A stretch of 64,000 nucleotides of DNA from Minisyncoccota bacterium (GTDB taxonomy: Bacteria > Patescibacteriota > Minisyncoccia > Phycocordibacterales > UBA9973), in assembly GCA_041648595.1 (NCBI GenBank), contig JBAZOQ010000001.1, forward strand, positions 14,002 to 78,001, read 5' to 3'. Of this stretch, positions 9,423-64,000 are shown one piece after another. The notes under the pieces are model-generated. The model ran no database searches. It saw only the letters and a program-made list of their open reading frames with translations, and was not told the origin of the DNA. Every line of letters starts with the position of its first letter. The first letter of the stretch is position 1. A program made the position numbers and the translations under genes.

Positions 9423-9469
9423 TTTTTATAATATATTTTATATATTTGTGTTATATTAAAACGATGGAT

Positions 9470-9589
9470 CCCGTTAGAGATTAAATAGTTATTTTTTCGG
9501 GATTTATTTAAGTTAGCTCTTGTAACTAATTTTATTATTAAATATTAATTTAAGGTACGGAAATCTAAAGATTTCCTATCTCTAACGGG
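9470..9589 (+). mobile_element. MITE-like TIR element, family 1 copy a (120 bp). TIRs are CCCGTTAGAGATT / ATCTCTAACGGG. It is flanked by direct repeat ATGGAT (9464-9469 and 9590-9595), and the 3' copy is the lepA start codon.
   Basis: Inverted termini and flanking 6-bp direct repeat were read directly. The interior is AT-rich and non-coding (MDPVRD followed by a stop if read from the 5' ATG). Confidence 0.6.
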
Positions 9590-11509
9590 ATGGATTTAAA
9601 ACACATACGAAACTTTTCTATCATCGCACATATTGATCATGGTAAAAGTACTTTGGCGGATAGAATGTTAGAAATTACACATACTATTCCTGAGCGTAAA
9701 ATGCGTGATCAAGTACTTGATTCTATGGATCTTGAACGTGAACGTGGAATTACTATTAAAATGCAACCAGTTAGGATGGTCTATCGACCAAAATTTCCAA
9801 TTTCCAATTTCCAATTTCCAATCAATGATCCAATTTCTAATGAAAATTCTAAATTAAAAATTGAAAATTCAAATTCAGAATACATTCTGAATTTGATTGA
9901 CACCCCAGGGCATATAGACTTTTCTTATGAAGTTTCTCGAGCATTAAAAGCAGTAGAGGGCTCTATTTTATTAGTTGATGCGACACAGGGAGTACAAGCT
10001 CAAACTCTTACTACACTTAATATGGCACGTGAGGGAGCCAAAGAAGGGGGCAAACAAATTATTCCAGTACTTTCAAAGATTGATTCACCACTTGCTCGAG
10101 TAGAAGAAGTAAAAAGGGAGGTTATAGAACTCTTAGGTTGTAATTCTGACGAAATATTGATGGTTTCTGGACGTACGGGTGAAGGAGTAGAAAATCTTTT
10201 AAATGAAATAATAAAACGTATTCCACCACCAGTTGAAAGTTATCCACAAGGTGATAATATTTTACGTGCTCTTGTTTTTGATTTTAAATATTCTAATCAC
10301 AAAGGGGTTATAGTTTTTATTAGATTATTAGATGGAAAAGTAAAAAAGGGTGATAATTTACTTTTTTCAGTTTCAGGTGAAAAATTTTGTGCTCTGGAAG
10401 TTGGTACTTTTTCTCCAGAAGAAACACCAAGAGATTTTCTTTTTGCAGGAGATACGGGTTATATTGTTACAGGCATAAAAAGACCAGGTATTGCTTCTGT
10501 TGGAGATACTATTACAAAAGAAAAAAATCCATTACCTGCATTACCTGGATATATGCAACCAATGCCTGTTGTTTGGGCATCTGTTTTTCCAGAAGATGCT
10601 GATGATTTTTTAGAACTGAAATTATCTTTAGGAAAATTAAAATTATCTGATTCATCTTTTTCATACGAAGAAGAATCAAGTGGTTCACTAGGGCGAGGAT
10701 TTAGATGTGGTTTTCTTGGAATGCTGCATTTAGAGATTATCACAGAAAGATTAAGACGAGAATTTAATTTAGAGCTTGTTATAACTACTCCATCTATTAC
10801 TTATGAAGTATTATTGAGAAACCCTTCGACAGGCTCAGGGCAAGCTGGAAAAAGAGTAAAAATTTATTTTCCTTACTTTTTTCCTGAAGATGGAAATATA
10901 GATACAGTATTTGAACCTTGGGTAAAATTGAAAATAATTACTCCAATCAAATATATAGGCAATATTATGCAAATTCTTTTTGACCATGAAGCTGAAATTG
11001 GTGAGACAGATAATTTTGGCAATAATCGTTCTTCTGTATCTGTTAAAATGCCACTTCGTGAACTTATGCGTAATTTTTTCGATGAATTGAAAAGTGTTTC
11101 ATCTGGATATGGATCTATTTCTTATGAAATAGATGAAATGCGTAAAGCAAATGTTACTAGACTTGATGTGTTAGTCGCTGAAGAAGTGGTTCCTGCATTT
11201 TGTAGAGTTGTTTCAAAAAAAAGGGCAGAAGAAGAAGCAGAAAAAATAGTTGAAAAATTACATGATATTTTACCAAGACAAATGTTTGTTACTAAAATTC
11301 AGGGTAAAGTGTTAGGACGCATAGTATCATCTCGTACATTGCAGGCATTTAGTAAAGATGTGACTCAACATATGTATGGTGGAGACGTTACTCGTAAAAA
11401 TAAACTTCGAGATAAACAAAAGAAAGGAAAAAAGAAAATGAAAGAACGTGGAAAAGTGAATATTCCACATAGTGTATTTTTGAAAATGATGCGTGGAGGA
11501 AATGATTAA
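9590..11509 (+). CDS. lepA: Translation elongation factor 4 (LepA). It carries an in-frame (AATTTCC)n low-complexity insertion and an in-frame GC-rich REP-like insertion.
   Basis: N-terminus MDLKHIRNFSIIAHIDHGKSTLADR, NLIDTPGHIDF, and the LepA-specific C-terminal domain. Length 639 aa. Confidence 0.9.
   Translation: MDLKHIRNFSIIAHIDHGKSTLADRMLEITHTIPERKMRDQVLDSMDLERERGITIKMQPVRMVYRPKFPISNFQFPINDPISNENSKLKIENSNSEYILNLIDTPGHIDFSYEVSRALKAVEGSILLVDATQGVQAQTLTTLNMAREGAKEGGKQIIPVLSKIDSPLARVEEVKREVIELLGCNSDEILMVSGRTGEGVENLLNEIIKRIPPPVESYPQGDNILRALVFDFKYSNHKGVIVFIRLLDGKVKKGDNLLFSVSGEKFCALEVGTFSPEETPRDFLFAGDTGYIVTGIKRPGIASVGDTITKEKNPLPALPGYMQPMPVVWASVFPEDADDFLELKLSLGKLKLSDSSFSYEEESSGSLGRGFRCGFLGMLHLEIITERLRREFNLELVITTPSITYEVLLRNPSTGSGQAGKRVKIYFPYFFPEDGNIDTVFEPWVKLKIITPIKYIGNIMQILFDHEAEIGETDNFGNNRSSVSVKMPLRELMRNFFDELKSVSSGYGSISYEIDEMRKANVTRLDVLVAEEVVPAFCRVVSKKRAEEEAEKIVEKLHDILPRQMFVTKIQGKVLGRIVSSRTLQAFSKDVTQHMYGGDVTRKNKLRDKQKKGKKKMKERGKVNIPHSVFLKMMRGGND
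9792..9819 (+). repeat. Perfect heptanucleotide tandem repeat (AATTTCC)x4 inside the lepA coding sequence, followed by degenerate AAATTC-like repeats to about 9890. It is translated as PISNFQFPINDPISNENSKLKIENSNSE.
   Basis: Seen directly. The segment lies between the G1 and G3 (DTPGH) motifs, where canonical LepA has no such segment. Confidence 0.8.
10821..10848 (+). repeat. GC-rich REP-like element (family B: CCTTCGACAGGCTCAGGGCAAGC) inserted in frame in lepA. It is translated as NPSTGSGQAGK.
   Basis: A roughly 25-nt island of about 65% GC in an about 30% GC gene. The same motif occurs in eno (x2) and valS (x2). Confidence 0.7.
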
Positions 11510-12154: not shown

Positions 12155-12221
12155 TCCCGTTAGAAATTCACTTAACGGGAGTCGAAAATATATTAAAAAT
12201 TAATTTTAAATTTCTAACGGG
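12155..12221 (+). mobile_element. MITE-like TIR element, family 1 copy b (67 bp). TIRs are TCCCGTTAGAAATT / AATTTCTAACGGG. It is flanked by direct repeat ATGAA (12150-12154 and 12222-12226), and the 3' copy is the start codon of the dehydrogenase gene.
   Basis: Read directly. Confidence 0.6.
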
Positions 12222-13175
12222 ATGAAAATAGCATTTTTTAGTGTTTTAAAAGAATATCAAGAATTTTTTAATAATTCATTTTCAAAAGATGAAGTTTTTT
12301 GTTTTGAAGAAAAATTAACTAAAGAAAAATTGAACCAAATAAAAGATTTTGAAGTTGTTTCTGTTTTCGTAGATTCGATAGTAGATAAAGATATTATTGA
12401 TAATTTATCTAATTTAAAATTTATTACTACTCGTTCGACTGGATTTGATCATGTTGATTATCAATATGCAAAAAGTAAGGGAATAGCATTTTCTAATGTT
12501 CCAGTGTATGGCTCTAGTACTGTAGCTGAATTTACTTTTGCTTTGATATTAAATCTTTCTAGAAAAATTAGTGAAGCTCTAAGACAATTGAAAGAAGGAG
12601 GTATTTTTGAAGCATTAAAAAACATACAAGGTTTTGATTTAGATGGTAAAATTATTGGAGTCATTGGTACTGGTAAAATAGGTAAGAATGTAATACGTAT
12701 TGCTAAAGCTTTTAATATGAAAGTTTTAGCTTATGATTTATATCCAGATTTAAATTTTGCGAAAGAAAATAATTTTGAATATAAAGATTTTAATGAAGTG
12801 ATATCTGTATCTGATATTATTACGTTGCATACTCCTTCTACAAAAGAAAATTATCATCTTATAAATAAAGAAAGTATTTCAAAAATGAAAAAAGGTGTTT
12901 ATATCATAAACACTGCCCGTGGTGAACTTATAAATACAGAAGACCTGATATTGGGAGTAAAAGAAGGTATTGTGGGTGGTGTAGGATTAGACGTATTGGA
13001 AGGTGAGCGTGATTTTAAAAAAGGAGACAAGATTGCTTTTTTTGAAATACCTAATGTTATAGTCACACCACATATAGCTTTTTATTCGAAAGAAGCGGTA
13101 GATAGAATAGCTGAAACCACGGTTGATAATATAAAAGGTTTTATGTCTGGTAATTTACAGAATTTAGTAAAATAA
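12222..13175 (+). CDS. D-isomer-specific 2-hydroxyacid dehydrogenase family protein (hydroxypyruvate/glycerate or D-lactate dehydrogenase-like).
   Basis: NAD-binding GVIGTGKIGKNVIRIAKAFNMKVLAYD. Catalytic region ARGELINTEDL..GVGLDV...HIAFYSKEA. Confidence 0.8.
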   Translation: MKIAFFSVLKEYQEFFNNSFSKDEVFCFEEKLTKEKLNQIKDFEVVSVFVDSIVDKDIIDNLSNLKFITTRSTGFDHVDYQYAKSKGIAFSNVPVYGSSTVAEFTFALILNLSRKISEALRQLKEGGIFEALKNIQGFDLDGKIIGVIGTGKIGKNVIRIAKAFNMKVLAYDLYPDLNFAKENNFEYKDFNEVISVSDIITLHTPSTKENYHLINKESISKMKKGVYIINTARGELINTEDLILGVKEGIVGGVGLDVLEGERDFKKGDKIAFFEIPNVIVTPHIAFYSKEAVDRIAETTVDNIKGFMSGNLQNLVK

Positions 13176-18318: not shown

Positions 18319-18383
18319 TCCTGTTAGAAATTCAACAGGTATGTTATAATGATAAAAATTATTAATTTAAAATTTCTAATAGG
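18319..18383 (+). mobile_element. MITE-like TIR element, family 1 copy c (subfamily c/e). 5' ACTTGTCCTGTTAGAAATTCAACAGG, 3' AAATTTCTAATAGG abutting ATG 18384. Internal TTATAAT box. A 5' ATG at 18310 opens a 5-codon uORF (MYLSC).
   Basis: Read directly. The 3' TIR is degenerate relative to copies a, b, d and f. Confidence 0.5.
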
Positions 18384-18581
18384 ATGCTTATAATATCTCA
18401 AACAATATTTTATATAGTAGCTTCAGTCGCAATGATCGTTGTTCTTGTGATGTTTGTTATTGTGATATATTATTTTATAGGTATTTTAAAAAATACCCGT
18501 AGTATTTCTGATGATATTGTAAATACTTATACAAAAACTAAAAAAAATATAAAGAAGATTATTAATTCAATAAAAATATGA
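18384..18581 (+). CDS. Small hydrophobic membrane protein (65 aa), hypothetical.
   Basis: ORF directly after a family-1 element. Its TGA stop lies inside the ATGAG repeat of the next element. Confidence 0.4.
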   Translation: MLIISQTIFYIVASVAMIVVLVMFVIVIYYFIGILKNTRSISDDIVNTYTKTKKNIKKIINSIKI

Positions 18582-18582
18582 G

Positions 18583-18688
18583 TCCCGTTAGAAATTTACA
18601 AAACGGGGATAAAATTATAAAAATAACATAAATCAACTATCTTTATATATAAATAATATATGTACGAATGGTATGATTTCTAAACGGG
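18583..18688 (+). mobile_element. MITE-like TIR element, family 1 copy d (106 bp). 5' TCCCGTTAGAAATTTAC with local hairpin CCCGTT..AACGGG, 3' GATTTCTAAACGGG. Flanked by ATGAG (18578-18582, containing the upstream TGA stop) and ATGAA (18689, the downstream start).
   Basis: Read directly. TGgTATGAT (extended -10-like) lies 11 nt before the ATG. Confidence 0.6.
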
Positions 18689-19021
18689 ATGAAAAAACAA
18701 ATAAAAAAAGAAGAAAAAAGTAGTAAGTTTTTGAGTGGAGCATTGATAGGTGCAGCACTTGGTGTAGCAGCAGGACTTTTTGCAACATCAAAAAAAGGAA
18801 AAGAAATTACAAAAGAAGTAAAAAATAAATCAGTAGAATTTTATAAATATATTGCTCCACAAATAAAGAAAGCAAAAGAGATGGGGGAGCAAGAATATAA
18901 AGCTTTTATAAATAAAGCATTAGTTAGTTATAATAAAAATAAGAAATTCAGTAAAGAAGACTTAGAAAATCTAAAAAAAGAAGTCCACGCATCTTGGAAA
19001 CATCTAAAAAAGAATTTTTAG
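18689..19021 (+). CDS. YtxH-like small membrane-anchored protein (DUF948-like).
   Basis: N-terminal LSGALIGAALGVAAGLFATSKKGKE followed by a charged helical tail. Confidence 0.5.
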   Translation: MKKQIKKEEKSSKFLSGALIGAALGVAAGLFATSKKGKEITKEVKNKSVEFYKYIAPQIKKAKEMGEQEYKAFINKALVSYNKNKKFSKEDLENLKKEVHASWKHLKKNF

Positions 19022-19036
19022 AAATCTAGCTTAGAC

Positions 19037-19059
19037 TTGCGGAAGCAAGACTTCCGCAA
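19037..19059 (+). repeat. REP-1 palindrome TTGCGGAAGCAAGACTTCCGCAA, immediately upstream of tRNA-Gly.
   Basis: Same palindrome family as the three copies around and inside the RAYT gene at 36.3-37.1 kb. Confidence 0.75.
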
Positions 19060-19064
19060 ATATT

Positions 19065-31885: not shown

Positions 31886-32040
31886 TAAAGGCTTTAGGCT
31901 TTAGGCTCTAGGCTTTAGCTTTTATACTAATACTCAGAATCTAACTACTAAGAGCAAAATTTAATTAATAAAGTTATATGTTCATATAATAGCAGAAAAT
32001 TATATTTTGGCTAGTAGCCTAAAGCCTAGTGCCTAAAGCC
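31886..32040. repeat. Inverted pair of CCTAAAG/CCTAGTG heptad-repeat blocks (GGCTTTAGGCTTTAGGCTCTAGGCTTTAGC ... TAGCCTAAAGCCTAGTGCCTAAAGCC) bracketing the ftsA-ftsZ intergenic region. A third block lies at 48911-48941 upstream of obg.
   Basis: Read directly. The two blocks are reverse complements of each other. Confidence 0.7.
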
Positions 32041-32045
32041 TGTGT

Positions 32046-34450: not shown

Positions 34451-34477
34451 TTTCCGTTTTTAAACGGAAGAATTAAA

Positions 34478-36325: not shown

Positions 36326-36347
36326 TTGCGGAAGCAAGGCTTCCGCA
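36326..36347 (+). repeat. REP-1 palindrome TTGCGGAAGCAAGGCTTCCGCA, immediately upstream of the RAYT gene.
   Basis: Perfect 9-bp arms GCGGAAGC/GCTTCCGC around CAAGG. Confidence 0.75.
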
Positions 36348-36361
36348 GTACTATAGTTAGT

Positions 36362-37063
36362 ATGGCGTATAGAAAAGCATCTTTTGTAGAAGGAGAATTT
36401 TATCATATTTATAATAGAGGAAATAGTAAACAAAAAATATTTTTAGATAATCATGATTATGATCGTTTTATAAAATTATTATATCTTTGTAATTCAGAAT
36501 ATAGTATTGATTTTCGTGAAGATATAGTAAGACAGGGAATTAATGCTTGGGATTTTGATCGTGGTGAATCTATAGTTTCAATAGGTGCATGGGTATTAAT
36601 GCCAAATCATTTTCATTTATATTTAAATATAAATCCGCGGAAGCAAGGCTTCCGCAAAGTTCGTATTAATGAAATTACAGAATTTATGCACAAACTTTTG
36701 ACATCTTATTCGAAGTATTTTAATACAAAATATAAACGTACAGGAGGATTATTTGAAGGTAAATTTAAATCAGTTCATATAGAGGATGATAATCAAGCAA
36801 AATATCTTTTTTCTTATATTCATTTGAATCCAGTCAAACTTATAGATAGTAAATGGAAAGAAAATGGAATAAAAAATAAAAAACAAACAAAAGATTTTTT
36901 GAATAAATATATATGGTCAAGTTATTTAGATTATAAAGGAATTACTCGTTCCCCAAATAAAATTTTAAATAAAAAGGCATTTCCAGAATACTTTCGTAAT
37001 ATGAAAGATTTTGATTTTGAAATAGGGGAGTGGCTTAATTTTTCGGATTCTGACTTAAATTAA
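36362..37063 (+). CDS. IS200/IS605-family HUH Y1 transposase, REP-associated tyrosine transposase (RAYT)-like. It contains an in-frame REP-1 copy (PRKQGFRK).
   Basis: N-terminal FVEGEFYHIYNRGN, HUH motif MPNHFHLYL, catalytic Tyr region KYLFSYIHLNPVK. Flanked on both sides by REP-1 palindromes. ATG 36362 is preferred over the track's TTG start at 36326, which lies inside the REP. Confidence 0.75.
   Translation: MAYRKASFVEGEFYHIYNRGNSKQKIFLDNHDYDRFIKLLYLCNSEYSIDFREDIVRQGINAWDFDRGESIVSIGAWVLMPNHFHLYLNINPRKQGFRKVRINEITEFMHKLLTSYSKYFNTKYKRTGGLFEGKFKSVHIEDDNQAKYLFSYIHLNPVKLIDSKWKENGIKNKKQTKDFLNKYIWSSYLDYKGITRSPNKILNKKAFPEYFRNMKDFDFEIGEWLNFSDSDLN
36635..36657 (+). repeat. REP-1 palindrome CCGCGGAAGCAAGGCTTCCGCAA inserted in frame within the RAYT gene.
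   Basis: Translated as NPRKQGFRKV directly after the HUH motif. Confidence 0.7.
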
Positions 37064-37096
37064 AATCCAAAAGACCGTCTTTTGGGTAAAAAAAAA

Positions 37097-37119
37097 TTGC
37101 GGAAGCCAGGCTTCCGCAA
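37097..37119 (+). repeat. REP-1 palindrome TTGCGGAAGCCAGGCTTCCGCAA, immediately downstream of the RAYT gene.
   Basis: Read directly. Confidence 0.75.
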
Positions 37120-37444
37120 AATTTAACTTTTGTTGAAATAGAAATACACGTAGTAGAGTGCCAAAAATATGGCGAACAACAAAAAAGAAACTCCGGTACC
37201 TACCCACTGTAGGTTCCAGGCAAATATTATTCCTAAAAAGAACAGGAATAACTCAACAAAAATAAGGAGAATTGTTATCTCCTCTTTGAGGAGAATGTCT
37301 ATCTTCTCTTTTAATGTTTTCATTTTTTCTCCATTTTAATTTTTAATTCCATCAATAGTTTAACACAAAATTGACATAAAAGTCAATGTTTTTCAGTTTC
37401 GAGTTATCCACAGGTAGGGCTTGGCTTCTTTTTTGCTTGTGGTT

Positions 37445-37484
37445 TATAATGTTAATCAAGTGGGAAAAGGTGGGAAAAGTGTTA
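37445..37484 (+). promoter_or_regulatory. Putative Pmra region. TATAAT -10 box (37445-37450) followed by three direct repeats GTGGG / GTGGG / GTGTT spaced exactly 10 bp apart (37460, 37470, 37480), a candidate MraZ operator.
   Basis: AAGTGGGAAAAGGTGGGAAAAGTGTT read directly. MraZ is known to bind arrays of short direct repeats in its own promoter. Confidence 0.5.
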
Positions 37485-37505
37485 ATAACTTTTTTATATA
37501 AATTT

Positions 37506-37952
37506 ATGTTAATCGGCGAATACATACACACTATAGATGAAAAGAATAGAATTTCATTGCCTGTAAAATTCCGTAAGGAACTTGGCAAAAAAATTATTAT
37601 TACACCTGGGCTTGATCAATGTTTATTTATATTTACAGCAGTTGAATGGAAAAAGGTTTCAAAAAGACTTTCTGATTCAGATTCTGATTTATCTTTTTTG
37701 AAAGCTGACAAGAGAAGTTTTAATAGATTTATGTTTGGACGAGCAGCAGAAGTGGAAGTGGATACTATTGGAAGAATTTTAATTCCTGATTTTTTGAAAG
37801 AAAGAATTGGCCTTGCTGGTAAAGCAGCGATAATAGGAGTAGAAGACAGAGTTGAAATTTGGAATGATAAAACATGGATGCAATACAGAGATGTTGTGGA
37901 AAAACAAGCAGATCAATTAGCAGAGAAGTTGGGACAAAAAGATGATGATTAA
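37506..37952 (+). CDS. mraZ: Transcriptional regulator MraZ.
   Basis: MLIGEYIHTIDEKNRISLPVKFRKEL and a second SpoVT/AbrB-like repeat GRAAEVEVDTIGRILIPDFL. The track's extended N-terminus from 37386 is probably untranslated leader. Confidence 0.85.
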   Translation: MLIGEYIHTIDEKNRISLPVKFRKELGKKIIITPGLDQCLFIFTAVEWKKVSKRLSDSDSDLSFLKADKRSFNRFMFGRAAEVEVDTIGRILIPDFLKERIGLAGKAAIIGVEDRVEIWNDKTWMQYRDVVEKQADQLAEKLGQKDDD

Positions 37953-38874
37953 TGAGGCAGGGGAGAGTATACACAAGACAGTTCTTTTAAATGAAACAAT
38001 AGAAGGTTTAGGGCTCTCCAGAAGCCAGGCTTTGGGGATTTCTAAAAGCATGGCTTCAGAAAAGATTATTCTTGATGCGACATTTGGTGGTGGTGGACAT
38101 TCTAGAGAAATTTTAGAAAGATATCCTGAAATAAAAATAGTTGCACTAGATCAAGATAAAGATACTTGGAAAAAAGCAGAAAATAAATTTAAAGGTTTAG
38201 AAAAAAGAATATCATTTTTAAATATTAATTTTAGAGATATTAAAGAAGATGATAAATTTGATGGAATTATTTTTGATTTAGGTTTGAGTTCTGATCAGTT
38301 AGAAAATTCTGGACGAGGATTTTCTTTTATAAAAGATGAGCCATTGCTCATGACTATGAAAGAAAATCCTCTGCCAGAAGATCTTACAGCCATAGACATA
38401 GTAAATGGTTGGAGTGAAAAAAGTTTGGCAGATATTATTTATGGTTATGGTGAAGAAAGATTTTCTAGGAGAATAGCGAAGGGTATAGTAGAAGCAAGAA
38501 AAAAAAATAGAATTGAGAGGACGACAGATTTGGTAAAAATAATTAGTGAAAGTGTTCCATCGACATACAGAAAACAAAGGTTACATTTTGCCACAAGAAC
38601 ATTTCAAGCATTACGTATAGCAGTAAATGATGAATTAGGTGCTCTTCAAATAGGACTGGAAAAAGGATTGAAAATTTTAAATAAAGGAGGAAGGATGGCA
38701 GTAATTTCTTTTCATAGTTTAGAAGATAGAATTGTTAAAAGATTTTTTAAAGAAAAAGAAAGAAACGGAGAAGTATTTTTAATAAACAAGAGACCAATAA
38801 TAGCAGGAGAAAAAGAAATAAAAAATAATGCGAGATCAAGAAGTGCAAAATTACGAATTTTAGAAAAAATTTAA
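37942..38874 (+). CDS. rsmH: 16S rRNA (cytosine1402-N4)-methyltransferase RsmH (MraW).
   Basis: HKTVLLNE...DATFGGGGHS SAM-binding N-terminus and conserved C-terminal region. Confidence 0.85.
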   Translation: MMINEAGESIHKTVLLNETIEGLGLSRSQALGISKSMASEKIILDATFGGGGHSREILERYPEIKIVALDQDKDTWKKAENKFKGLEKRISFLNINFRDIKEDDKFDGIIFDLGLSSDQLENSGRGFSFIKDEPLLMTMKENPLPEDLTAIDIVNGWSEKSLADIIYGYGEERFSRRIAKGIVEARKKNRIERTTDLVKIISESVPSTYRKQRLHFATRTFQALRIAVNDELGALQIGLEKGLKILNKGGRMAVISFHSLEDRIVKRFFKEKERNGEVFLINKRPIIAGEKEIKNNARSRSAKLRILEKI

Positions 38875-38941
38875 TCCGCCAAAATTTTTCACAAGATTAA
38901 GGCGAGACATTTAAAAATATAATATTAAAAATTTAGGTGGA
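38875..38941 (+). mobile_element. MITE-like TIR element, family 2 copy 1 (67 bp). TIRs are TCCGCCAAAATTTTT / AAAAATTTAGGTGGA. Flanked by TAA direct repeat (the 5' copy is the rsmH stop). The 3' TIR provides the AGGTGGA Shine-Dalgarno about 6 nt upstream of ftsL ATG 38947.
   Basis: Read directly. Confidence 0.55.
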
Positions 38942-38946
38942 TAAAT

Positions 38947-39300
38947 ATGAAAGAAGTAAGTTTAAAATTAAAGAGTTTTGCAGGTAATGTAAATATCATT
39001 GATAATGGTAATTTACAAAGGAGGATTTTATATACGATGCTTTATGTGCTTGCAGGACTTGCTTTTTTCTATGTTTTTCTTTTAGGAAATATGATTTTTA
39101 ATATTGTAGAACGAAAAACACTTGAAAGTCATGCTTTAACATTACAGAACGAAGTTGGTAATCTAGAATTAGAATACCTTTCTTTGTCTCAAAAAGTAGA
39201 TCTTAATCTTGCATATTCTTTAGGTTTTAAAGAAACAAAAACGAAATTTGCAACACGAAAAGCTCTTGGTAGTATAAGTATCGCTAAAAATGAAATCTAG
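38947..39300 (+). CDS. ftsL: Cell division protein FtsL-like (single TM plus coiled coil).
   Basis: Position between rsmH and ftsI. TM helix LYVLAGLAFFYVFLLG followed by a coiled coil. Confidence 0.55.
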   Translation: MKEVSLKLKSFAGNVNIIDNGNLQRRILYTMLYVLAGLAFFYVFLLGNMIFNIVERKTLESHALTLQNEVGNLELEYLSLSQKVDLNLAYSLGFKETKTKFATRKALGSISIAKNEI

Positions 39301-40999
39301 TTTTATTTTAAGGAATAGAATTATATTTTTTTGTATCTTTATTTTTGCTCTTATATTGATAGGAAAGCTTTTTTTAGTACAAGTTGTTCATAGTAACGAT
39401 TATTCTCTACGTGCTGATAGACAATATTCTACGCCATCTTCAAATATTTTTGAACGTGGAACTATTTATTTTTCACGCAAAGATGATCAACTTGTTTCTG
39501 CTGCTATGCAGACTACAGGATTTAAAGTAGCAATTAACCCAATAAAAGTACTCGATAAAGAATTAACTTATCAAGAATTATCAAAAGTTATAAAAATAGA
39601 CCACGATGAGTATTTAATAAAGGCTAATAAAGAAAATGATCCTTATGAAGAGATAGCGACCCATCTTTCAAAAGAGCAAGCTGATGCTATATCTCTTTTG
39701 AAAATTCCTGGTTTATCTATTTATAAAGAGAAATGGCGTTTTTATCCTGGAAGTAATTTAGCAGCACAGTCATTGGGTTTCGTAGCTTATAATAATAATG
39801 ATCTTGCTGGACGTTATGGGCTTGAAAGACAATATAATGATTTACTTTCTAGAAATAAAAATAATCCATATGTAAATTTTTTTGCTGAAGTTTTTTCTAA
39901 TATTAATAAAACATTATTTAGTGATGATACAAAAGAAGGAGATATTGTAACGACGATAGAACCGAATGTTCAAAGTTTCTTGGAAGACACACTAGAGAGT
40001 GTTAAAGAAAAATATCAAATTGACTCTATTGGTGGAATAATAATGAATCCTACTGATGGTTCTATTTATGCACTTTCCAGTAAGCCGGATTTTGATTTAA
40101 ATGATTTTTCGGAAGTTAAAACTTCTACTTTTTCTAATCCATTAGTAGAAAATGTTTTTGAATTTGGATCTGTAGTAAAACCTTTAGTAGTAGCAGGAGC
40201 ATTAGATGCAGGTGTAATTAAGGCAGATACGACATATAATGATAACGGATCAGTAGTCGTTGAGAAACATACAATATCTAACTTTGATAAACAAGCTAGA
40301 GGACCTGGTACAACAATGCAAGATGTTTTAACACAATCATTGAATACTGGAATGGTTTTTATAGAGCAAAAATTAGGTAAAGAAAAATTACGTGATTATT
40401 TATTATCTTTTGGTATAAAAGATAAGACAGGTATTGATTTGCCAAATGAAACGAGTGGTTTAGTTTCTAATATAATGACTAGTCCTCGTGAGATTGAATA
40501 TGCGAATGCTGCTTTTGGACAAGGTATAGCTATGACTCCAATAGAATTAGTGCGAGCGTTGGCATCATTATCAAATGGTGGAAAATTGGTTACACCACAT
40601 CTTGTTAAAACTATAAAATATGATGATGGTACAGAGAAAAATATTGTATATGAAACAAAACCTGTAAAAATATCTGAAGCGACTAGTACGGAGATTACGC
40701 GTATGCTTGTAAATGTTATGGATCAAGACAAGATAGGAAATGGAGAACTGGAACATTATAGTGTTGCAATAAAAACTGGTACTGCACAAGTTGCAGATAA
40801 AGAAACAGGCGGGTATTATGATGATAGGCATATGCATTCTTTTTTTGGATATTTTCCAGCTTATGAGCCTAAGTTTATTGTTTTTCTTTATGCAATAAAT
40901 CCTAAAGGTGTGCTTTATTCAATTCAGACATGGGCAGATCCTTTTGTTAGTGTTGCAAAATTTTTAGTTAATTATTATGAAGTTCCACCTGACAGATAA
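39290..40999 (+). CDS. ftsI: Penicillin-binding protein transpeptidase (FtsI/PBP2-type).
   Basis: SxxK (GSVVKP), SxN (SLNTG), KTG (KTGTA). N-terminal TM anchor. Confidence 0.85.
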   Translation: MKSSFILRNRIIFFCIFIFALILIGKLFLVQVVHSNDYSLRADRQYSTPSSNIFERGTIYFSRKDDQLVSAAMQTTGFKVAINPIKVLDKELTYQELSKVIKIDHDEYLIKANKENDPYEEIATHLSKEQADAISLLKIPGLSIYKEKWRFYPGSNLAAQSLGFVAYNNNDLAGRYGLERQYNDLLSRNKNNPYVNFFAEVFSNINKTLFSDDTKEGDIVTTIEPNVQSFLEDTLESVKEKYQIDSIGGIIMNPTDGSIYALSSKPDFDLNDFSEVKTSTFSNPLVENVFEFGSVVKPLVVAGALDAGVIKADTTYNDNGSVVVEKHTISNFDKQARGPGTTMQDVLTQSLNTGMVFIEQKLGKEKLRDYLLSFGIKDKTGIDLPNETSGLVSNIMTSPREIEYANAAFGQGIAMTPIELVRALASLSNGGKLVTPHLVKTIKYDDGTEKNIVYETKPVKISEATSTEITRMLVNVMDQDKIGNGELEHYSVAIKTGTAQVADKETGGYYDDRHMHSFFGYFPAYEPKFIVFLYAINPKGVLYSIQTWADPFVSVAKFLVNYYEVPPDR

Positions 41000-41007
41000 A
41001 AGATGAA

Positions 41008-41113
41008 TCCACCAAAATTTTTTAACAGAGAAATATTATAAATTAATTTATTTTTTTATATCAATCATATAATCTTTTAATAGATAAGTAGGTTAGGTAT
41101 AAAATTTAGGCGG
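41008..41113 (+). mobile_element. MITE-like TIR element, family 2 copy 2 (106 bp). TIRs are TCCACCAAAATTTTTT / AAAATTTAGGCGG. Flanked by direct repeat ATGAA (41003-41007 and 41114-41118, the latter being the murF start).
   Basis: Read directly. Confidence 0.55.
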
Positions 41114-42409
41114 ATGAAAACAATTTTTAAAAAAATAATAGTATACATATTACAAATAGAATCACGATTGGTTCTTTGGAAATATAAACCCAAAATTGTA
41201 TCTATTACTGGATCAGTGGGTAAAACTTCTACAAAAGATGCAGTTTTTGCTGTTATTTCTCTCATTTCTTATGTTCGTAAAAGTGAAAAAAGTTATAACA
41301 GTGAAATAGGATTACCTCTAACGATATTGGGGTGTCCTAATGGATGGAATAATCCTTTTATGTGGTTTTTAAATATATTAAAGGGGTTTTGGCTTTTTGT
41401 TTGGCCACATAAATATCCTAAATGGTTAGTGCTTGAGGTTGGTATTGGTAAACCAGGTGATATGCATCGTACTGCTTCTTGGCTTCAAAGTGATGTAGTG
41501 ATAATTACAGCAATAGGAGATACTCCATCACACATTGAATTTTTTGAATCACGTAAACATTTAATAGAAGAAAAGAGTAGGCTTATAAAAACTTTGAAAA
41601 AAGATGGACTTTTAATATTGAATAATGATGATGAGACAGTATCTGAAATGAGAGAAAAAATAAAGAACATTGTTGTGACTTTTGGTTTTAAAGAAGGTTC
41701 TAATATAAGAGCATCAGAAGATAGTATTTTATATACAGAAGATGAGATACCAGAAGGTTTGATTTTTAGAATAGACGAAGATGGTAATAGTTTGCCGGTG
41801 ACTATAGAAGGAGTATTTGGTAGAAATCACATATATGCTTCACTTGGTGCTCTTGCTCTTTCTTCCGGTTTGAAATTTAATATGCTTGATTCTATTAATA
41901 GACTTAAAAATTATAGTGTCCCACCTGGACGTATGCGTCTTTTGGATGGTATAAATGATTCTCTTATAATAGATGATACTTATAATTCTTCTCCTTATGC
42001 TTGTGAATTTGCCCTTAAAACTTTGAAAGAGGTGAAATTAATAGGTAGAAAGATTGCTATTTTAGGAGATATGTTAGAGCTTGGTCGTCACACAGAAGAA
42101 GCGCATAAAAATATTGGTAAAATTGCAAAAGAAAATTCTGACATACTTATTGTAGTAGGACTTAGAGCTAAAAAAATAAAAGAAGGTGCGAAAGAAGCTG
42201 GAATGAACGATATGAATATTTTTGAATTTTTGAATTCACACGAAGTAGGAAAGTTTCTAAAAACATTTGTACAAAAAAATGATCTTGTTCTTATTAAAGG
42301 TTCACAAGGAATGAGAATGGAGAGGGTAGTAGAATCTATATTGAAAGATAAAAAAAATAAGTATCAACTTCTTGTTCGTCAAGACGAAGAGTGGAAAAAG
42401 AAGAAATAA
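41114..42409 (+). CDS. murF: UDP-N-acetylmuramoyl-tripeptide--D-alanyl-D-alanine ligase.
   Basis: ITGSVGKTSTKD P-loop and Mur ligase central and C-terminal domains. Confidence 0.8.
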   Translation: MKTIFKKIIVYILQIESRLVLWKYKPKIVSITGSVGKTSTKDAVFAVISLISYVRKSEKSYNSEIGLPLTILGCPNGWNNPFMWFLNILKGFWLFVWPHKYPKWLVLEVGIGKPGDMHRTASWLQSDVVIITAIGDTPSHIEFFESRKHLIEEKSRLIKTLKKDGLLILNNDDETVSEMREKIKNIVVTFGFKEGSNIRASEDSILYTEDEIPEGLIFRIDEDGNSLPVTIEGVFGRNHIYASLGALALSSGLKFNMLDSINRLKNYSVPPGRMRLLDGINDSLIIDDTYNSSPYACEFALKTLKEVKLIGRKIAILGDMLELGRHTEEAHKNIGKIAKENSDILIVVGLRAKKIKEGAKEAGMNDMNIFEFLNSHEVGKFLKTFVQKNDLVLIKGSQGMRMERVVESILKDKKNKYQLLVRQDEEWKKKK

Positions 42410-42414
42410 AAATT

Positions 42415-42441
42415 GGCGGAACACAATGTCCGCCTTTTTTA
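42415..42441 (+). terminator. Rho-independent terminator after murF (GGCGGA-acacaatg-TCCGCC-TTTTTT).
   Basis: Perfect 6-bp GC stem plus T run. Confidence 0.75.
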
Positions 42442-42721
42442 AAATTCTTCAAATTTATCTAAAATTTTTTTATAGAAATTTGTTTTAAAAACAAATTTTT
42501 CTGTCAGGAATGCAATTCCTAAAAAAATTATTAAAGCACTAAAAATATAAATAGCAAGAACAAAATCTCCGTAACTCATCTTGAACTCCTTTTTGTTGAT
42601 AAATCTTATACAAGTATAGCATATTGTTATCTATTTGTCAAGTATTCTAAGTTTGTAAAAAAATAACTCTTGTGTTATAATTAAAACAGAAATAAAGTAA
42701 TTTTTTTAAAAAGGAGAAAAA

Positions 42722-43153
42722 ATGAAAAATGTTCTTTATGTGATTAATCACGTAGAAATTATTTTTTGTTTCAATTTAGTTTTTTCCTTTTTGGGAATAA
42801 TTATTTTGAAGAAAAGACGAATTTATAAAAATTATGCCTCTTATATAATCCTTACTAGATTAATAATAATATTGATTTTTATTAATTTTATAATAATTTT
42901 TACACACATTGAAGTTTCAAATCAAATAGGAGAAAAGATGCATCTTTTGAATTCAATTCTTGGATCTATTAAAATTGAATTTTTTGGTTTTTTGATGTCT
43001 TTTATATTATTAATTTCTTTTATAGAGATTTTTTACAAACCAGAAGATTCATTTTATATAAAATTTCTTGTAATTATGTTCGCTGTTTTTTTTGTAAGTA
43101 CAGCAATAATAACCATAGTGTTGTATGTTTTAAATATACTAGTACCAACATAA
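42722..43153 (+). CDS. Hypothetical polytopic membrane protein (143 aa, Phe/Ile-rich).
   Basis: ORF of hydrophobic stretches only. No recognisable motif. Confidence 0.35.
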   Translation: MKNVLYVINHVEIIFCFNLVFSFLGIIILKKRRIYKNYASYIILTRLIIILIFINFIIIFTHIEVSNQIGEKMHLLNSILGSIKIEFFGFLMSFILLISFIEIFYKPEDSFYIKFLVIMFAVFFVSTAIITIVLYVLNILVPT

Positions 43154-48902: not shown

Positions 48903-48945
48903 ATTATATCTAGTGCCTAGTGCCTAAAGCCTAGTGCCTATTAAC

Positions 48946-52555: not shown

Positions 52556-52619
52556 TCCCGTTAGAAATTCAGCGGACATGTTATAATGATAATGTTATTA
52601 ATTTAAAATTTCTAATGAG
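52556..52619 (+). mobile_element. MITE-like TIR element, family 1 copy e (subfamily c/e). 5' (ACTTG)TCCCGTTAGAAATTCAGCGGACATG, internal TTATAAT, 3' AAATTTCTAATGAG abutting the fba ATG 52620.
   Basis: About 85% identical to copy c over its length. Confidence 0.5.
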
Positions 52620-53492
52620 ATGAAAACCTTACGTGAATATGTAAAAGAAGCGGAAGAGAAGAAGGTAGCAATAGGTCATTTTAATATTTCAAATTTAGAA
52701 GCCTTGCATGGTATTTATAATGCAGCTAAGAAGTTAAATGTGCCTATAATAATTGGTCTTTCAGAAGGGGAAGAAAATTTTATAGGTAAAGAAGAAGCAG
52801 TAGCTTTAATAAAGGCTATTCGTGAGAGGGATGATTTTCCTATTTTTTTAAATGCAGATCATCATTATAGTTTTGAAAAAGTTAAAGAAGCGTTAGATGC
52901 TGGTTATGATGCAGCTATTATTGATTTAGTAAAATTACCACTTGAAGAAAATATTTTACTTACAAAAAAATGTGTTGATTATGCTAAAGAACTTTCTCAA
53001 AAAGAAAATAGAGATATTTTAGTTGAAGCAGAGCTTGGTTTCATTGGAACTTCTTCAAAAATTTTAGAGGAAATTCCAGAAGGGGTAAGTGAAGCGACTA
53101 TGACAAAAGCAGAAGATGCAAAATATTTTGTAGAAAAAACTGGTATTGATTTGTTGGCACCTTCTGTAGGAAATGTTCATGGAATGGTAAAAGGAGGAAA
53201 CCCTAGACTTAATATAGAAAGAATAAAAAAAATCCGTGCTACTTGTGGTGTACCTCTAGTATTACATGGAGGTTCAGGAATTTCGGATGAAGATTTTACG
53301 AATGCTATAAAAGCAGGTATTTCTATAGTTCATATTAATACTGAGATTCGTGTTGCTTATAAAGAAGCAATAGAAAAATATTTGAAAGAGAATCCAAATG
53401 AAGTTGCACCATATAAAATATTACAACATGCAGTAGAGGCTGTAGAAAAAGTAGTAGAAGCGCGATTGAAGCTTTTTAATAATTTAAAATAG
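52620..53492 (+). CDS. fba: Class II fructose-bisphosphate aldolase.
   Basis: MKTLREYVKEAEEKKVAIGHFNISNLE, metal-binding His region NADHHYSFE, LHGGSGISDEDF. Confidence 0.8.
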   Translation: MKTLREYVKEAEEKKVAIGHFNISNLEALHGIYNAAKKLNVPIIIGLSEGEENFIGKEEAVALIKAIRERDDFPIFLNADHHYSFEKVKEALDAGYDAAIIDLVKLPLEENILLTKKCVDYAKELSQKENRDILVEAELGFIGTSSKILEEIPEGVSEATMTKAEDAKYFVEKTGIDLLAPSVGNVHGMVKGGNPRLNIERIKKIRATCGVPLVLHGGSGISDEDFTNAIKAGISIVHINTEIRVAYKEAIEKYLKENPNEVAPYKILQHAVEAVEKVVEARLKLFNNLK

Positions 53493-62209: not shown

Positions 62210-62212
62210 AAT

Positions 62213-62300
62213 TCCCCTCTTGAGGGGTGCCCCTCGGGCGGGGTGGATGAATATTTCCACCTCCCCCTAAAGGGTACTCCTCAAGAGGAGAATAAACCCA
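62213..62300 (+). promoter_or_regulatory. GC-rich structured intergenic element between atpE and atpF, with palindromes CCCCTCTTGAGGGG and CTCCTCAAGAGGAG and a GGTGGA..TCCACC stem.
   Basis: Read directly. More than 55% GC in a roughly 90-nt stretch. Confidence 0.45.
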
Positions 62301-62792
62301 ATGGATTCAATCATTAACACATTTCACATAGATTTTAAAATTATTATTGCTCAAATTTTTAATTTTGTGATAGTTTTTGTTGTTTTATACATATATGCTC
62401 TTAAGCCATTAAATAAATTAATGAAGGAGCGTTCTGAAAAAATATCAAAAGGTATTGATGATGCTAAAATAAATGCAGAAATTTTAAATAATACAAAAGC
62501 AGAATATGAAGAAGTTTTAGTAAAAGCTCGTAATGAAGCATATAAGATATGGGAAGTTGGAAAAAAAGAATCAGAAGCAAAAAAAATTTTAATGTTAGAA
62601 AAAGCAAAAGAAGAAGTTGATATTATGATAGATAATGGAAAAAAGAATCTTGAAAATGAAAAAATAAAAATGGTAGCCGAAGCCAGAGAAGAAATCACTA
62701 CTCTTTCCATAAAAATAGCAGAAAAAATACTTGGTAAAAATTTAGATAAAAATTTTGATGAGAAAACAATGAAAGAATTAAATAATATATAA
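62301..62792 (+). CDS. atpF: F0F1 ATP synthase subunit b.
   Basis: N-terminal TM helix then a long charged helix. Position in the operon. Confidence 0.75.
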   Translation: MDSIINTFHIDFKIIIAQIFNFVIVFVVLYIYALKPLNKLMKERSEKISKGIDDAKINAEILNNTKAEYEEVLVKARNEAYKIWEVGKKESEAKKILMLEKAKEEVDIMIDNGKKNLENEKIKMVAEAREEITTLSIKIAEKILGKNLDKNFDEKTMKELNNI

Positions 62793-62793
62793 A

Positions 62794-62870
62794 TCCACCA
62801 AAATTTTTCACGAAAATAAAATTATGTTAACAAATATTAAAATTATATATATTAAAAAAATTTAGGCGGA
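62794..62870 (+). mobile_element. MITE-like TIR element, family 2 copy 3 (77 bp). TIRs are TCCACCAAAATTTTTCAC / AAAAAATTTAGGCGGA. Flanked by TAAA direct repeat (the 5' copy contains the atpF TAA stop). AGGCGGA lies 8 nt upstream of atpH ATG 62879.
   Basis: Read directly. Confidence 0.55.
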
Positions 62871-62878
62871 TAAAAAAT

Positions 62879-63289
62879 ATGGCAACTATTTCAAACAATG
62901 ATATAGCCCGTGCAATTTATCTAATTTTGAAAGATAAAACAAAAATAGAATTACATGATGTATTTGATAAAGTAATAAAATTTTTAGTACAGAAAAGATT
63001 ATTAACAAAGACTGCAGATATTTTAGAACGTTTAGATAAAATAATTAATAAAGAGGAAGGGAAAATTATTGTAAAGATATTAAGTGCTAAAAAACTAAAA
63101 GAAGAATTAAAAAAAGAATTAATAATTTTTCTGAAAGAACGTTATAAAGCTAAAGAGATTGTCTTTATAGAAGTGTTAGAAGAAAAATTGTTAGGTGGTA
63201 TGAGAATAGAGGTGAATGATGAAATTATCGATTTAACAGTAAAAAACAAAATTAAAAAATTACAAGAACATTTAACAAGAAGAATATGA
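62879..63289 (+). CDS. atpH: F0F1 ATP synthase subunit delta.
   Basis: Position between atpF and atpA. OSCP-like helical protein of 136 aa. Confidence 0.65.
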   Translation: MATISNNDIARAIYLILKDKTKIELHDVFDKVIKFLVQKRLLTKTADILERLDKIINKEEGKIIVKILSAKKLKEELKKELIIFLKERYKAKEIVFIEVLEEKLLGGMRIEVNDEIIDLTVKNKIKKLQEHLTRRI

Positions 63290-63290
63290 G

Positions 63291-63389
63291 TCCCGTTAGA
63301 AGTTAACTTTCGGGAATAAATTATAAAAATTAATTAAGTTTATCTAATATATTAAAAAAGTTAAGTAAATTAGTATAACTTCTAACGGG
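63291..63389 (+). mobile_element. MITE-like TIR element, family 1 copy f (99 bp). TIRs are TCCCGTTAGAAGTTAAC / ATAACTTCTAACGGG. Flanked by direct repeat ATGAGT (63285-63290, containing the atpH TGA stop, and 63390-63395, the atpA start).
   Basis: Read directly. TAGTATAAC lies 10 nt before the ATG. Confidence 0.6.
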
Positions 63390-64000
63390 ATGAGTAACAA
63401 TATTGTAGAAAATTTAAAAAAAGAAATAGATAATTTTTCATCACAAATAAAAGCTGAAAAAGTTGGACATGTTTTAGAAGTTTTTGATGGTATAGCCAAA
63501 GTTTCTGGTCTTTCAGAGATAAAATCATCAGAGATGGTTACTTTTAGCAATGGAGAAATTGGTGTAGCACTTAACCTAGAAGAGGATACTGTTGGTATTA
63601 TCATTCTTGATGATTTTTCTAAGATAAGAGAAGGGGATGAAGTCAAAGCTACTGGAAAAATTTTAGAAGTACCAGTTTCGGATAATATTATTGGACGAGT
63701 TGTAAATGCCTTAGGTGTAGAAATTGATGGCAAAGGTGTTATTAGAACAGATAAAACTTATCCAATAGAAAAAGTTGCACCGGGTGTTATTACTCGTCTT
63801 TCTGTCTCTCAACCTGTTTCCACTGGTATTAAAGTTATCGATGCTATCATTCCTATCGGTCGTGGTCAACGTGAGCTTATTATTGGTGATCGCCAGACTG
63901 GTAAAACTGCAATTGCTATTGATGCTATTTTAAATCAAAAAGGTCAAAATATGATTTGTGTTTATGTTTCTATTGGTCAAAAAGATTCTAAACTTCGCAA
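63390..64000 (+). CDS. atpA: F0F1 ATP synthase subunit alpha (3' partial, runs off the window).
   Basis: [41 protein letters not shown] ... Walker [14 protein letters not shown]. Not in the ORF track because there is no stop within the window. Confidence 0.85.

Follow-up and report, generated by a model that had tools for sequence, protein, structure and literature searches.

Why does one short palindrome recur at three unrelated gene junctions of a single bacterium, each time fitted into the gap that separates a stop codon from the start codon downstream of it? The question is raised by a stretch of 64,000 nucleotides (hereafter, the window; G+C ~30%) from a Minisyncoccota bacterium of the Patescibacteriota (contig JBAZOQ010000001.1, positions 14,002 to 78,001). 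Three copies of a repeat, family 2, with the ends ATCCRCCAAAATTTTT...AAAAATTTAGGYGGAT, lie in the window at the junctions of rsmH with an ftsL-like gene, of ftsI with murF, and of atpF with atpH. An earlier note, made from the sequence alone, had placed them there, and each of the three was found to begin with ATCCRCCAAAATTTTT and to end with AAAAATTTAGGYGGAT. Our analysis revealed that family 2 is probably a small palindromic repeat of the MITE (miniature inverted-repeat transposable element) or REPIN type, dispersed among related genomes, the arms of which appear to be held by selection; for its present role we tentatively favor translational coupling through an RNA stem.

An intercistronic palindrome in conserved operons

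The three copies, their arms and the direct repeats around the second copy are located as follows.

38874-38942, forward strand: family-2 copy 1, 69 nt, occupying the gap between rsmH and the ftsL-like gene (covariance model R1, 75.5 bits sense versus 37.6 bits antisense)
38874-38889, forward strand: 5' arm of copy 1, ATCCGCCAAAATTTTT, whose first A is the final base of the rsmH stop codon TAA (38872-38874)
38927-38942, forward strand: 3' arm of copy 1, AAAAATTTAGGTGGAT, paired with the 5' arm in the minimum-energy fold and followed by AAAT and the ATG of the ftsL-like gene at 38947
41007-41115, forward strand: family-2 copy 2, 109 nt, a member of a long sub-family, in the gap between ftsI and murF
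41004-41007, forward strand: 5' copy of the TGAA direct repeat of copy 2, within ATGAA at 41003-41007
41115-41118, forward strand: 3' copy of the TGAA direct repeat of copy 2, within ATGAA at 41114-41118
62793-62871, forward strand: family-2 copy 3, 79 nt, in the gap between atpF and atpH (covariance model R1, 63.7 bits)
62793-62808, forward strand: 5' arm of copy 3, ATCCACCAAAATTTTT, with A at position 5, which stands as A.C against the 3' arm
62856-62871, forward strand: 3' arm of copy 3, AAAAATTTAGGCGGAT, followed by AAAAAAT and ATG

The murF ATG (41114-41116) overlaps the final two bases of the 3' arm of copy 2, and other members of its long sub-family were found in the collected loci L046, L080, L087, L099 and L129. 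At copy 3, the atpF stop codon ends at 62792 and the atpH ATG follows at 62879; the identical junction is present in L137. A Pfam search of the window proteins recovered MraZ, RsmH, a penicillin-binding protein transpeptidase of the ftsI type and a Mur ligase of the murF type, together with the ATP synthase subunits a, c, b and delta, which confirms the dcw and atp setting claimed earlier except for the 117-aa ftsL-like open reading frame (ORF), for which the Pfam search gave no match. A search for the 13-nt arm, with up to one mismatch allowed, gave 7 matches across the window versus 0.5 expected, a number reached in none of 100 shuffles, and six of the seven matches are arms of the three copies.

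One genome per species was scanned with the pattern ATCCRCCAAAATTT-N30-60-AAATTTAGGYGGAT, which yielded 24 loci in ~13 species-level metagenome-assembled genomes (MAGs) labelled Candidatus Nomurabacteria, Paceibacterota, Minisyncoccia or Patescibacteria group. A looser scan of metagenomes, with positions 5 and 8 left free in both arms and 12 of 14 bases fixed per arm, yielded 111 stretches. Loose-scan matches in L067 and L071 (perfect palindromes) and in L081, L091 and L104 (GGAGG-type tandem hairpins) were excluded as other sequences. After removal of duplicates, both scans gave ~128 unique sense copies at more than 30 different junctions. The proposal of a dispersed family with inverted termini lying strictly between cistrons, which stood or fell with the presence of copies elsewhere, is thus borne out by the many further copies in the collection. 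As far as the scans show, the family is confined to Parcubacteria-group Patescibacteria, in MAGs of the Nomurabacteria/Paceibacteria type.

Copies are 60–79 nt long, most commonly 70–71 nt, with the separate sub-family at 104–109 nt. As expected of MITEs, they are small, non-coding and dispersed, and their 16-nt arms, complementary at 14–15 of 16 positions in all copies, form terminal inverted repeats. T15 and T16 of the 5' arm and the A preceding the 3' arm are near-invariant although the scan left them unfixed, and the likewise unfixed AAA after GGAT, 3' of the palindrome, is 97–100% conserved. The interior is A-rich, with TTYACAAAAATAAA moderately conserved at positions 15–28, adjoining the 5' arm, and a weak majority-rule TATAAT at -26 to -21 from the 3' end. 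A covariance model scored sense copies at 52–87 bits and their antisense shadows at 37–52 bits; since the model separates the two strands, the element is directional despite its near-symmetric arms. On the minus strand of L043 (255-358), an incomplete copy, made up of the 5' arm and a short GGAGGAT end, stands directly before a full copy, nested or in tandem. At the gathering score, Rfam returned only tRNAs for the whole window, and for 38800-41200, with E up to 10, only far sub-threshold chance matches. A search of the literature on intergenic palindromic repeats of Patescibacteria and on leaderless or Shine-Dalgarno (SD) initiation in the candidate phyla radiation (CPR) gave no description of the element. 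A terminator scan of 37000-43000 recovered the operon terminator at 42415-42434 but reported no intrinsic terminator at the three sites, where the loop is ~38 nt long and the 3' flank is AAA, in place of the short loop and U tract of a terminator.

The placement of the copies is precise. Counted from the element in the 106 copies that lie away from contig ends, the stop codon of the upstream gene ends at -1 in 56 copies and at 0 in 22 (together 78 of 106), and within +4 in 91 of 106. The downstream start codon lies -2 to +13 nt past the element in ~90% of copies, most commonly 4–7 nt, and for the majority the distance from the 3' arm to the ATG is 2–9 nt; for the window, the interval of 0–8 nt described in the earlier note was found as reported. 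Every copy is sense-oriented toward the downstream ATG and lies between co-directional genes. The genes downstream encode S11, L23, L2, L5, S9, S5, L16, S10 and FtsW/RodA, to which the window adds the dcw and atp operons; one copy (L018) lies directly downstream of an RNase III gene, and by eye further copies flank pilin-like genes, pilC and the junctions purH-purB, ftsX-pyrG and greA-aspS. The position between stop and start codons and the ribosomal-protein and FtsW neighbors thus mark the element as intercistronic and as a feature of conserved operons.

Arm conservation and probable insertion history

Different species, with flanking proteins 50–78% identical, share a copy at the same junction. 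In 42 orthologous pairs, the arms are 95–98% identical at every divergence, while identity drops from 73% to 36% at third codon positions and from 89% to 63% in the interior, the background identity between interiors of unrelated copies being 66%; the reduced values are 36–51% for third codon positions and 63–75% for interiors. Because arm identity holds while third positions and interiors diverge, both arms appear to be under purifying selection in situ; this selection seems to be strong and to keep the full 16 nt of each arm as well as the AAA after the 3' arm. Some copies at different junctions have interiors that are 92–95% identical, and copying between junctions has therefore continued.

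Comparison of orthologous junctions in relatives revealed no single ancestral spacer: some hold a copy, some are short and empty, and some contain other repeats. As is characteristic of MITEs, a junction that is filled in one genome may be empty or hold something else in another; this was seen at rsmH-ftsL, greA-aspS, rplM-rpsI and tuf-rpsJ, among others. At rsmH-ftsL, the window reads TTTAA, the element (TCC...GGA) and TAAATATG, L015 is empty (TTTAAATAATATG), and L036 carries a different palindrome ending in CGGG directly before ATG. At greA-aspS, a full family-2 copy is present in L015 and L024, and the window has only a mini-hairpin, TCCGTTTTTAAACGGA, at 34453-34468, shortly past the greA stop codon.

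With the core set as TCC...GGA, the flanking 4-mers are TTAA upstream and TAAA downstream in 52 copies, TAAA on both sides in 27, and TTCA upstream and TAAA downstream, with no repeat, in ten. Copy-specific flanks consist of TGAA on both sides, in 8 of the 9 copies with a 3' TGAA, and of TACA on both sides in 1. In the window, the flanking TAA and TAAA that include the upstream stop codon, and the ATGAA pair at the murF start, are present as had been described. In L046 and L080, the 5' repeat copy still lies behind an apparent old ribosome-binding site (RBS), AAGGATATGAA, of the L24 gene. The TGAA and TACA flanks fit a 3–4-bp target duplication at the stop/start boundary, which is only partly established, because TAA/TAAA is also the family consensus. 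The ATG at 41003, within the vestigial 5' ATGAA of copy 2, starts a 12-codon ORF (MNPPKFFNREIL and a stop codon; 41003-41041) that crosses the 5' arm; in L046 and L080 the equivalent of this ATG is still preceded by an AAGGA motif.

Several known repeats resemble family 2 in part. Correia/NEMIS elements of Neisseria, RUP of S. pneumoniae and ERIC/IRU of Enterobacteriaceae are likewise small (~70–160 bp), non-coding MITEs with terminal inverted repeats and short direct repeats, and they too are intergenic, hairpin-forming and present at both filled and empty orthologous sites. ERIC and Correia are found in both orientations. Unlike Correia, ERIC and RUP, family 2 shows exact stop-to-start occupancy, a single orientation, arms that are invariant across a phylum-level clade and a conserved central mismatch; its flanking repeat is the stop codon (TAA, TAAA or TGAA), whereas in these MITEs it is TA. 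No sequence relation to them was found, and neither a parent insertion sequence (IS) nor a transposase is known for family 2. Bacterial MITEs are co-transcribed with their neighbors, and some alter mRNA stability or carry promoters (PMC3184786). REPINs, i.e., REP doublets mobilized by RAYT, share with family 2 the conserved inverted short arms, the variable spacer and the single long hairpin, and their near-identical copy populations persist vertically over long times (PMC3116915, PMC3337134). REP arms are GC-rich palindromes, whereas the family-2 arm ATCCGCCAAAATTTTT holds only the AT palindrome AAAATTTT. REPINs are not bound to stop or start codons or to one orientation. Among the genes called in L001, L137 and L139, no RAYT (a Y1 transposase) stood out, although no protein search was aimed at it. 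Neisseria REP2 and Borrelia IR repeats, like family 2, end just before start codons and provide the ribosome-binding region for many unrelated genes (PMC3184786), whereas family 2 is a stop-to-start palindrome inside operons, with only a candidate promoter and a weak RBS-like GGCGG. Family 2 probably began as a tiny mobile insertion of the MITE/REPIN type on the stop/start boundary of tightly packed operons. A selfish origin and a host function are compatible, and the data agree with a mobile family of long standing, its copies retained because they work.

Pairing of the arms and proposed translational coupling

Folded alone, 116 of 118 copies have their arms paired in the minimum-energy structure, with a mean of -12.2 kcal/mol and a mean z of -3.95 versus shuffles. 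An alignment of 121 distinct sequences (arms, short flanks and interior ends) has 90.3% of cells paired, and four pairs are changed on both sides versus 1.8 ± 0.5 in shuffles, where four was reached in 0 of 500. These compensatory changes include C-G to U-A at position 4 (L033, L037) and U-A to C-G at position 12 (L129, L031); wobble-compatible single changes are also present in the arms. Since L033 has a standard and a U-A variant copy on one contig, the compensation is local to the copy.

We hypothesize, with a confidence that falls a little short of even, that the co-transcribed stem joins the stop and start codons, masks a weak SD-like 3' arm and keeps translation coupled. The element would be transcribed within the operon mRNA, where the arms would form a stem of about -9 to -13 kcal/mol that always contains the central purine-A mismatch and loops out the A-rich interior. 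The foot of the stem would hold the upstream stop codon and the downstream AUG, and the purine-rich 3' arm (AGGYGGAUAAA, 6–9 nt before the AUG) would be buried. The stop codon adjoins the 5' arm or overlaps it; a ribosome terminating there would cover the first bases of that arm and melt the stem, so that the initiation site would be freed beside the terminating ribosome and the downstream cistron would be coupled despite a 70-nt insertion. In E. coli reporters, masking of the SD or start codon lowers translation 100–1000-fold, reinitiation falls off with stop-start distance, and an intercistronic hairpin of -9 kcal/mol is no block to reinitiating ribosomes (PMC3592434). The coupling model would account for the stop-codon lock, the fixed distance to the ATG, the moderate stability and the tolerance of the element inside essential operons; it would also account for the conservation of both arms, because initiation would constrain the 3' arm, and complementarity to that arm would constrain the 5' arm. 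E. coli atpHA is a known case of translational coupling through mRNA structure. In structure-based coupling, as proposed here, the downstream start region is paired with the end of the upstream cistron and is opened by upstream translation; the known structures are gene-specific, whereas family 2 would be one portable module at dozens of unrelated junctions. The empty junctions in relatives are mostly short and without an SD, which fits coupling as the norm in this lineage.

A number of observations weigh against this hypothesis. On an assumed canonical 16S tail, a search of all collected loci having found no 16S rRNA 3' end, the predicted pairing energy is -5.7 kcal/mol for GGCGG, -7.1 for GGUGG and -10.2 for GGAGG, and the -5.7 of GGCGG compares with -9.3 kcal/mol for real SDs in the window; GGAGG is also the rarest form of the 3' arm (2 of 121 copies). 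A GGAG-like SD precedes only ~7 of 60 window genes. Many window genes instead have TGnTAnAAT 6–7 nt before the ATG (starts 30632-, 43633-, 46876-, 51011+, 56811+, 57524+), and boxes so close to the ATG suggest that leaderless mRNAs may be widespread. Since hardly any position varies, the score for overall covariation is the same as the mean of the shuffles; all 121 of the 121 sequences have position 8 unpaired (A or G opposite A), even though the scan left it free, and position 5 is unpaired in 32 of 121 (26%), mostly as A.C, with the two arms varying there independently. Arms that are invariant rather than freely covarying hint at a trans-acting factor. With their flanks, the window copies fold at a z of only -1.3 to -1.5, and the antisense strand folds better than the sense strand (-14.9 versus -12.2 kcal/mol). 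Coupling leaves the strict sense orientation, the never-paired mismatch and the preference for GGCGG unexplained; since a flipped copy offers nearly the same arms, sense-only placement calls for directional information in the interior or at position 8. Nor is the element essential, because relatives manage without it at the same junctions.

The SD-like 3' arm of the earlier note therefore stands as regards its purine-rich composition and its spacing to the ATG, which suits an SD, and is weakened as regards the strength of GGCGG; likewise, the claimed pairing of the arms is reproduced by the predicted fold, while its support from covariation is slight. Because of the weak SD, the scarcity of SDs among the genes, the slight covariation and the mismatched positions, we infer co-transcription, pairing in vivo, masking of the RBS and coupling from the sequence only as a plausible function. 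It is also possible, although on the unlikely side, that family 2 is a mobile coupling cassette, which inserts exactly at the stop/start boundary of essential operons, those of ribosomal proteins, divisome and ATP synthase, with an anti-RBS beside the stop codon and an RBS beside the start codon. Such a cassette would fold itself aside, preserving or setting translational coupling, and would thereby colonize junctions that are normally repeat deserts, with its arms frozen across a phylum-level clade of ultra-small bacteria largely without SD sites.

Other functions at the RNA level were considered. The element may serve as mRNA punctuation, which we regard as unlikely: the stem, with its large AU-rich loop and purine-A mismatch, would be a processing or stability signal, cut on a single strand at the mismatch by RNase III or in the loop by an RNase Y/E-type enzyme, and the operon transcript would be split into segments of unequal half-life, with the 3' arm possibly becoming the 5' end of the downstream mRNA. 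This would agree with a never-paired mismatch at the center of a 16-bp stem, with an A-rich, single-stranded loop, with the RNase III encoded by the clade (in L018, once, directly upstream of a copy) and with copies in operons that need unequal product amounts (atp, ribosomal proteins, pilins). Programmed decay is reportedly documented as reshaping operons in another system, and effects of repeats on mRNA stability have precedent. For ERIC/REP, such effects are documented in other bacteria (PMC3184786). Nevertheless, a stem of 16 bp with 1–2 mismatches is short for RNase III, and a role in stability predicts neither the stop-codon lock nor the SD-like spacing to the ATG. A promoter-plus-RBS cassette, in which the directional interior would drive a transcript starting at the 3' arm and give the downstream gene a short-leader mRNA, appears improbable. 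Its signals would be TTYACA by the 5' arm and the weak TATAAT 21–26 nt before the 3' end, comparable to the Neisseria REP2 and Correia promoters; positions 15–28 hold the conserved TTYACAAAAATAAA, the majority-rule consensus near the 3' end reads TATAAT, some -10-like hexamer starts at -26 to -24 in 56 of 110 copies, the strict sense orientation would be accounted for, and there is precedent for repeats that bring a promoter, RBS and ATG with them (PMC3184786). TTYACA and TATAAT, however, stand ~24 nt apart, outside the sigma-70 geometry of 16–18 nt, and the TG extension is missing, whereas plausible promoters in the window read TGnTAnAAT. Furthermore, a consensus scan of 37000-43000 gave nothing in copy 1 and, for the region as a whole, a count that does not exceed shuffles (35 versus 29.5 ± 6.2), 13 of 110 copies have no -10-like hexamer, and the conservation of the 5' arm and the stop-codon lock would stay unexplained. 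A leaderless promoter in GGATAAAT was rejected, as its would-be -10 is too near the ATG compared with the window geometry of TGnTAnAAT plus 6–7 nt.

That family 2 is a purely selfish MITE- or REPIN-like element without host function, of which only intact copies replicate and decayed ones are soon deleted from streamlined genomes, we regard as quite unlikely. On this explanation, position and orientation would result from oriented insertion at T(A/G)AA by start codons, and the RBS-like end would only make the insertion harmless. Copy-specific direct repeats, orthologous junctions in filled, empty and differently filled states, and non-orthologous copies whose 92–95% identical interiors imply recent copying are all consistent with it, as are the uneven copy number (two loci each on contigs of 457 kb and 593 kb in the scan versus at least 8 exact matches in PFRK01) and related mini-palindromes apparently inserted in frame in prepilin genes; the long vertical persistence of REPIN populations (PMC3116915, PMC3337134) also agrees. 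Selection for mobility, however, cannot hold the arms of resident orthologous copies ~96% identical while their interiors diverge by 25–37%, and the AAA 3' of the palindrome is invariant too. In 0.9 Mb of collected sequence, as distinct from whole genomes, we found no autonomous element or transposase-bearing copy, essentially no solo or decayed arms, and no credible widely spaced arm pairs that could mark the boundaries of an autonomous IS. A role of the arms as paired DNA sites, each (ATCCRCC-W-AAATTT, outside in) forming a half-site for a regulator or a domesticated transposase, is very improbable. The same purine alternative is tolerated at position 5 in both arms independently, and the arm sequences stay invariant and do not covary; but a transcriptional operator makes little sense inside operons such as L4-L23-L2, and compensatory changes are confined to individual copies on a contig (L033). 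A phased operator pair was rejected, since the arm spacing spans nearly a helical turn (60–79 bp, plus 104–109 bp) and is therefore unphased.

Other repeats at the junctions and meaning of the family

Family 2 is not the only palindrome in the window. Family 1, TCCCGTTAGAAATT...AATTTCTAACGGG, which has TCC...GGA termini in common with family 2, as noted before, is present in six copies, each ending exactly at an ATG (CGGG and then ATG), several with TGTTATAAT.

Family-1 copies: 9469-9592, 12155-12224, 18319-18386, 18583-18691, 52556-52622 and 63291-63392

Ends of the family-1 type (…ttctaacgggATG, …cgtacgggATG) were observed at orthologous ribosomal-protein and rsmH-ftsL junctions in relatives. 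Between atpE and atpF (62211-62293), a GC-rich palindrome begins one base past the atpE stop codon, and its 3' arm carries the SD GAGGAG 9 nt before the atpF ATG; because a near-identical sequence lies at an unrelated junction in L046, it represents a third dispersed family. In L137 (9104-14500), which holds the atp operon of the same organism, palindromes occupy 4 of 8 atp junctions: the GC-rich type at atpE-atpF, family 2 at atpF-atpH, family 1 at atpH-atpA, and at atpG-atpD the mini-hairpin TCCGCCAAAGGCGGA, which uses the family-2 arm core. That several repeat families colonize operon junctions seems to hold generally for this lineage.

Shorter repeats were also observed. A 37-nt mini-palindrome related to the family-2 arms, ACCCGCCAAAATTTTC-CAAA-GAAAATTTCAGGCGGGT, is found in L094 (~688-725) and L115 (4359 and 4937), apparently in frame in the leader of prepilin-like genes, and recalls the palindromic elements of Rickettsia. 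The terminator of the murF operon (42415-42434; GGCGGAACACAATGTCCGCC and then T6) has a GGCGGA/TCCGCC core as in the family-2 arms, in reversed order. TAG-rich short tandem repeats (AGGCTTTAGGCTCTAGGC and relatives) lie in the window at 31889-31918, 32016-32041 and 48903-48933, and at junctions in L005, L010, L098 and L135. A hairpin, TTGCGGAAGC-N-GCTTCCGCAA, is repeated at 19037-19060, 36326-36350, 36640-36658 and 37097-37119, and its last copy was scored as a two-way terminator.

The small palindromic repeats described over the past decades come mainly from Proteobacteria and Firmicutes, where they are usually found at operon ends, away from essential genes. Patescibacteria are not culturable alone, and their gene-expression signals are almost unknown. 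Family 2 is a single module placed exactly in the gap from stop to start codon, within the operons that are most conserved in this group. If the arms act at the RNA level, they would constitute a natural portable device that links or tunes the translation of adjacent genes, and would give insight into the translation of internal cistrons in a lineage that is mostly without SDs and apparently uses leaderless-type promoters. If the element is purely selfish, it would be an example of a mobile element that invades ribosomal-protein operons without polar damage. Either way, family 2 provides an annotation marker that fixes start codons and a lineage-specific signature for binning.

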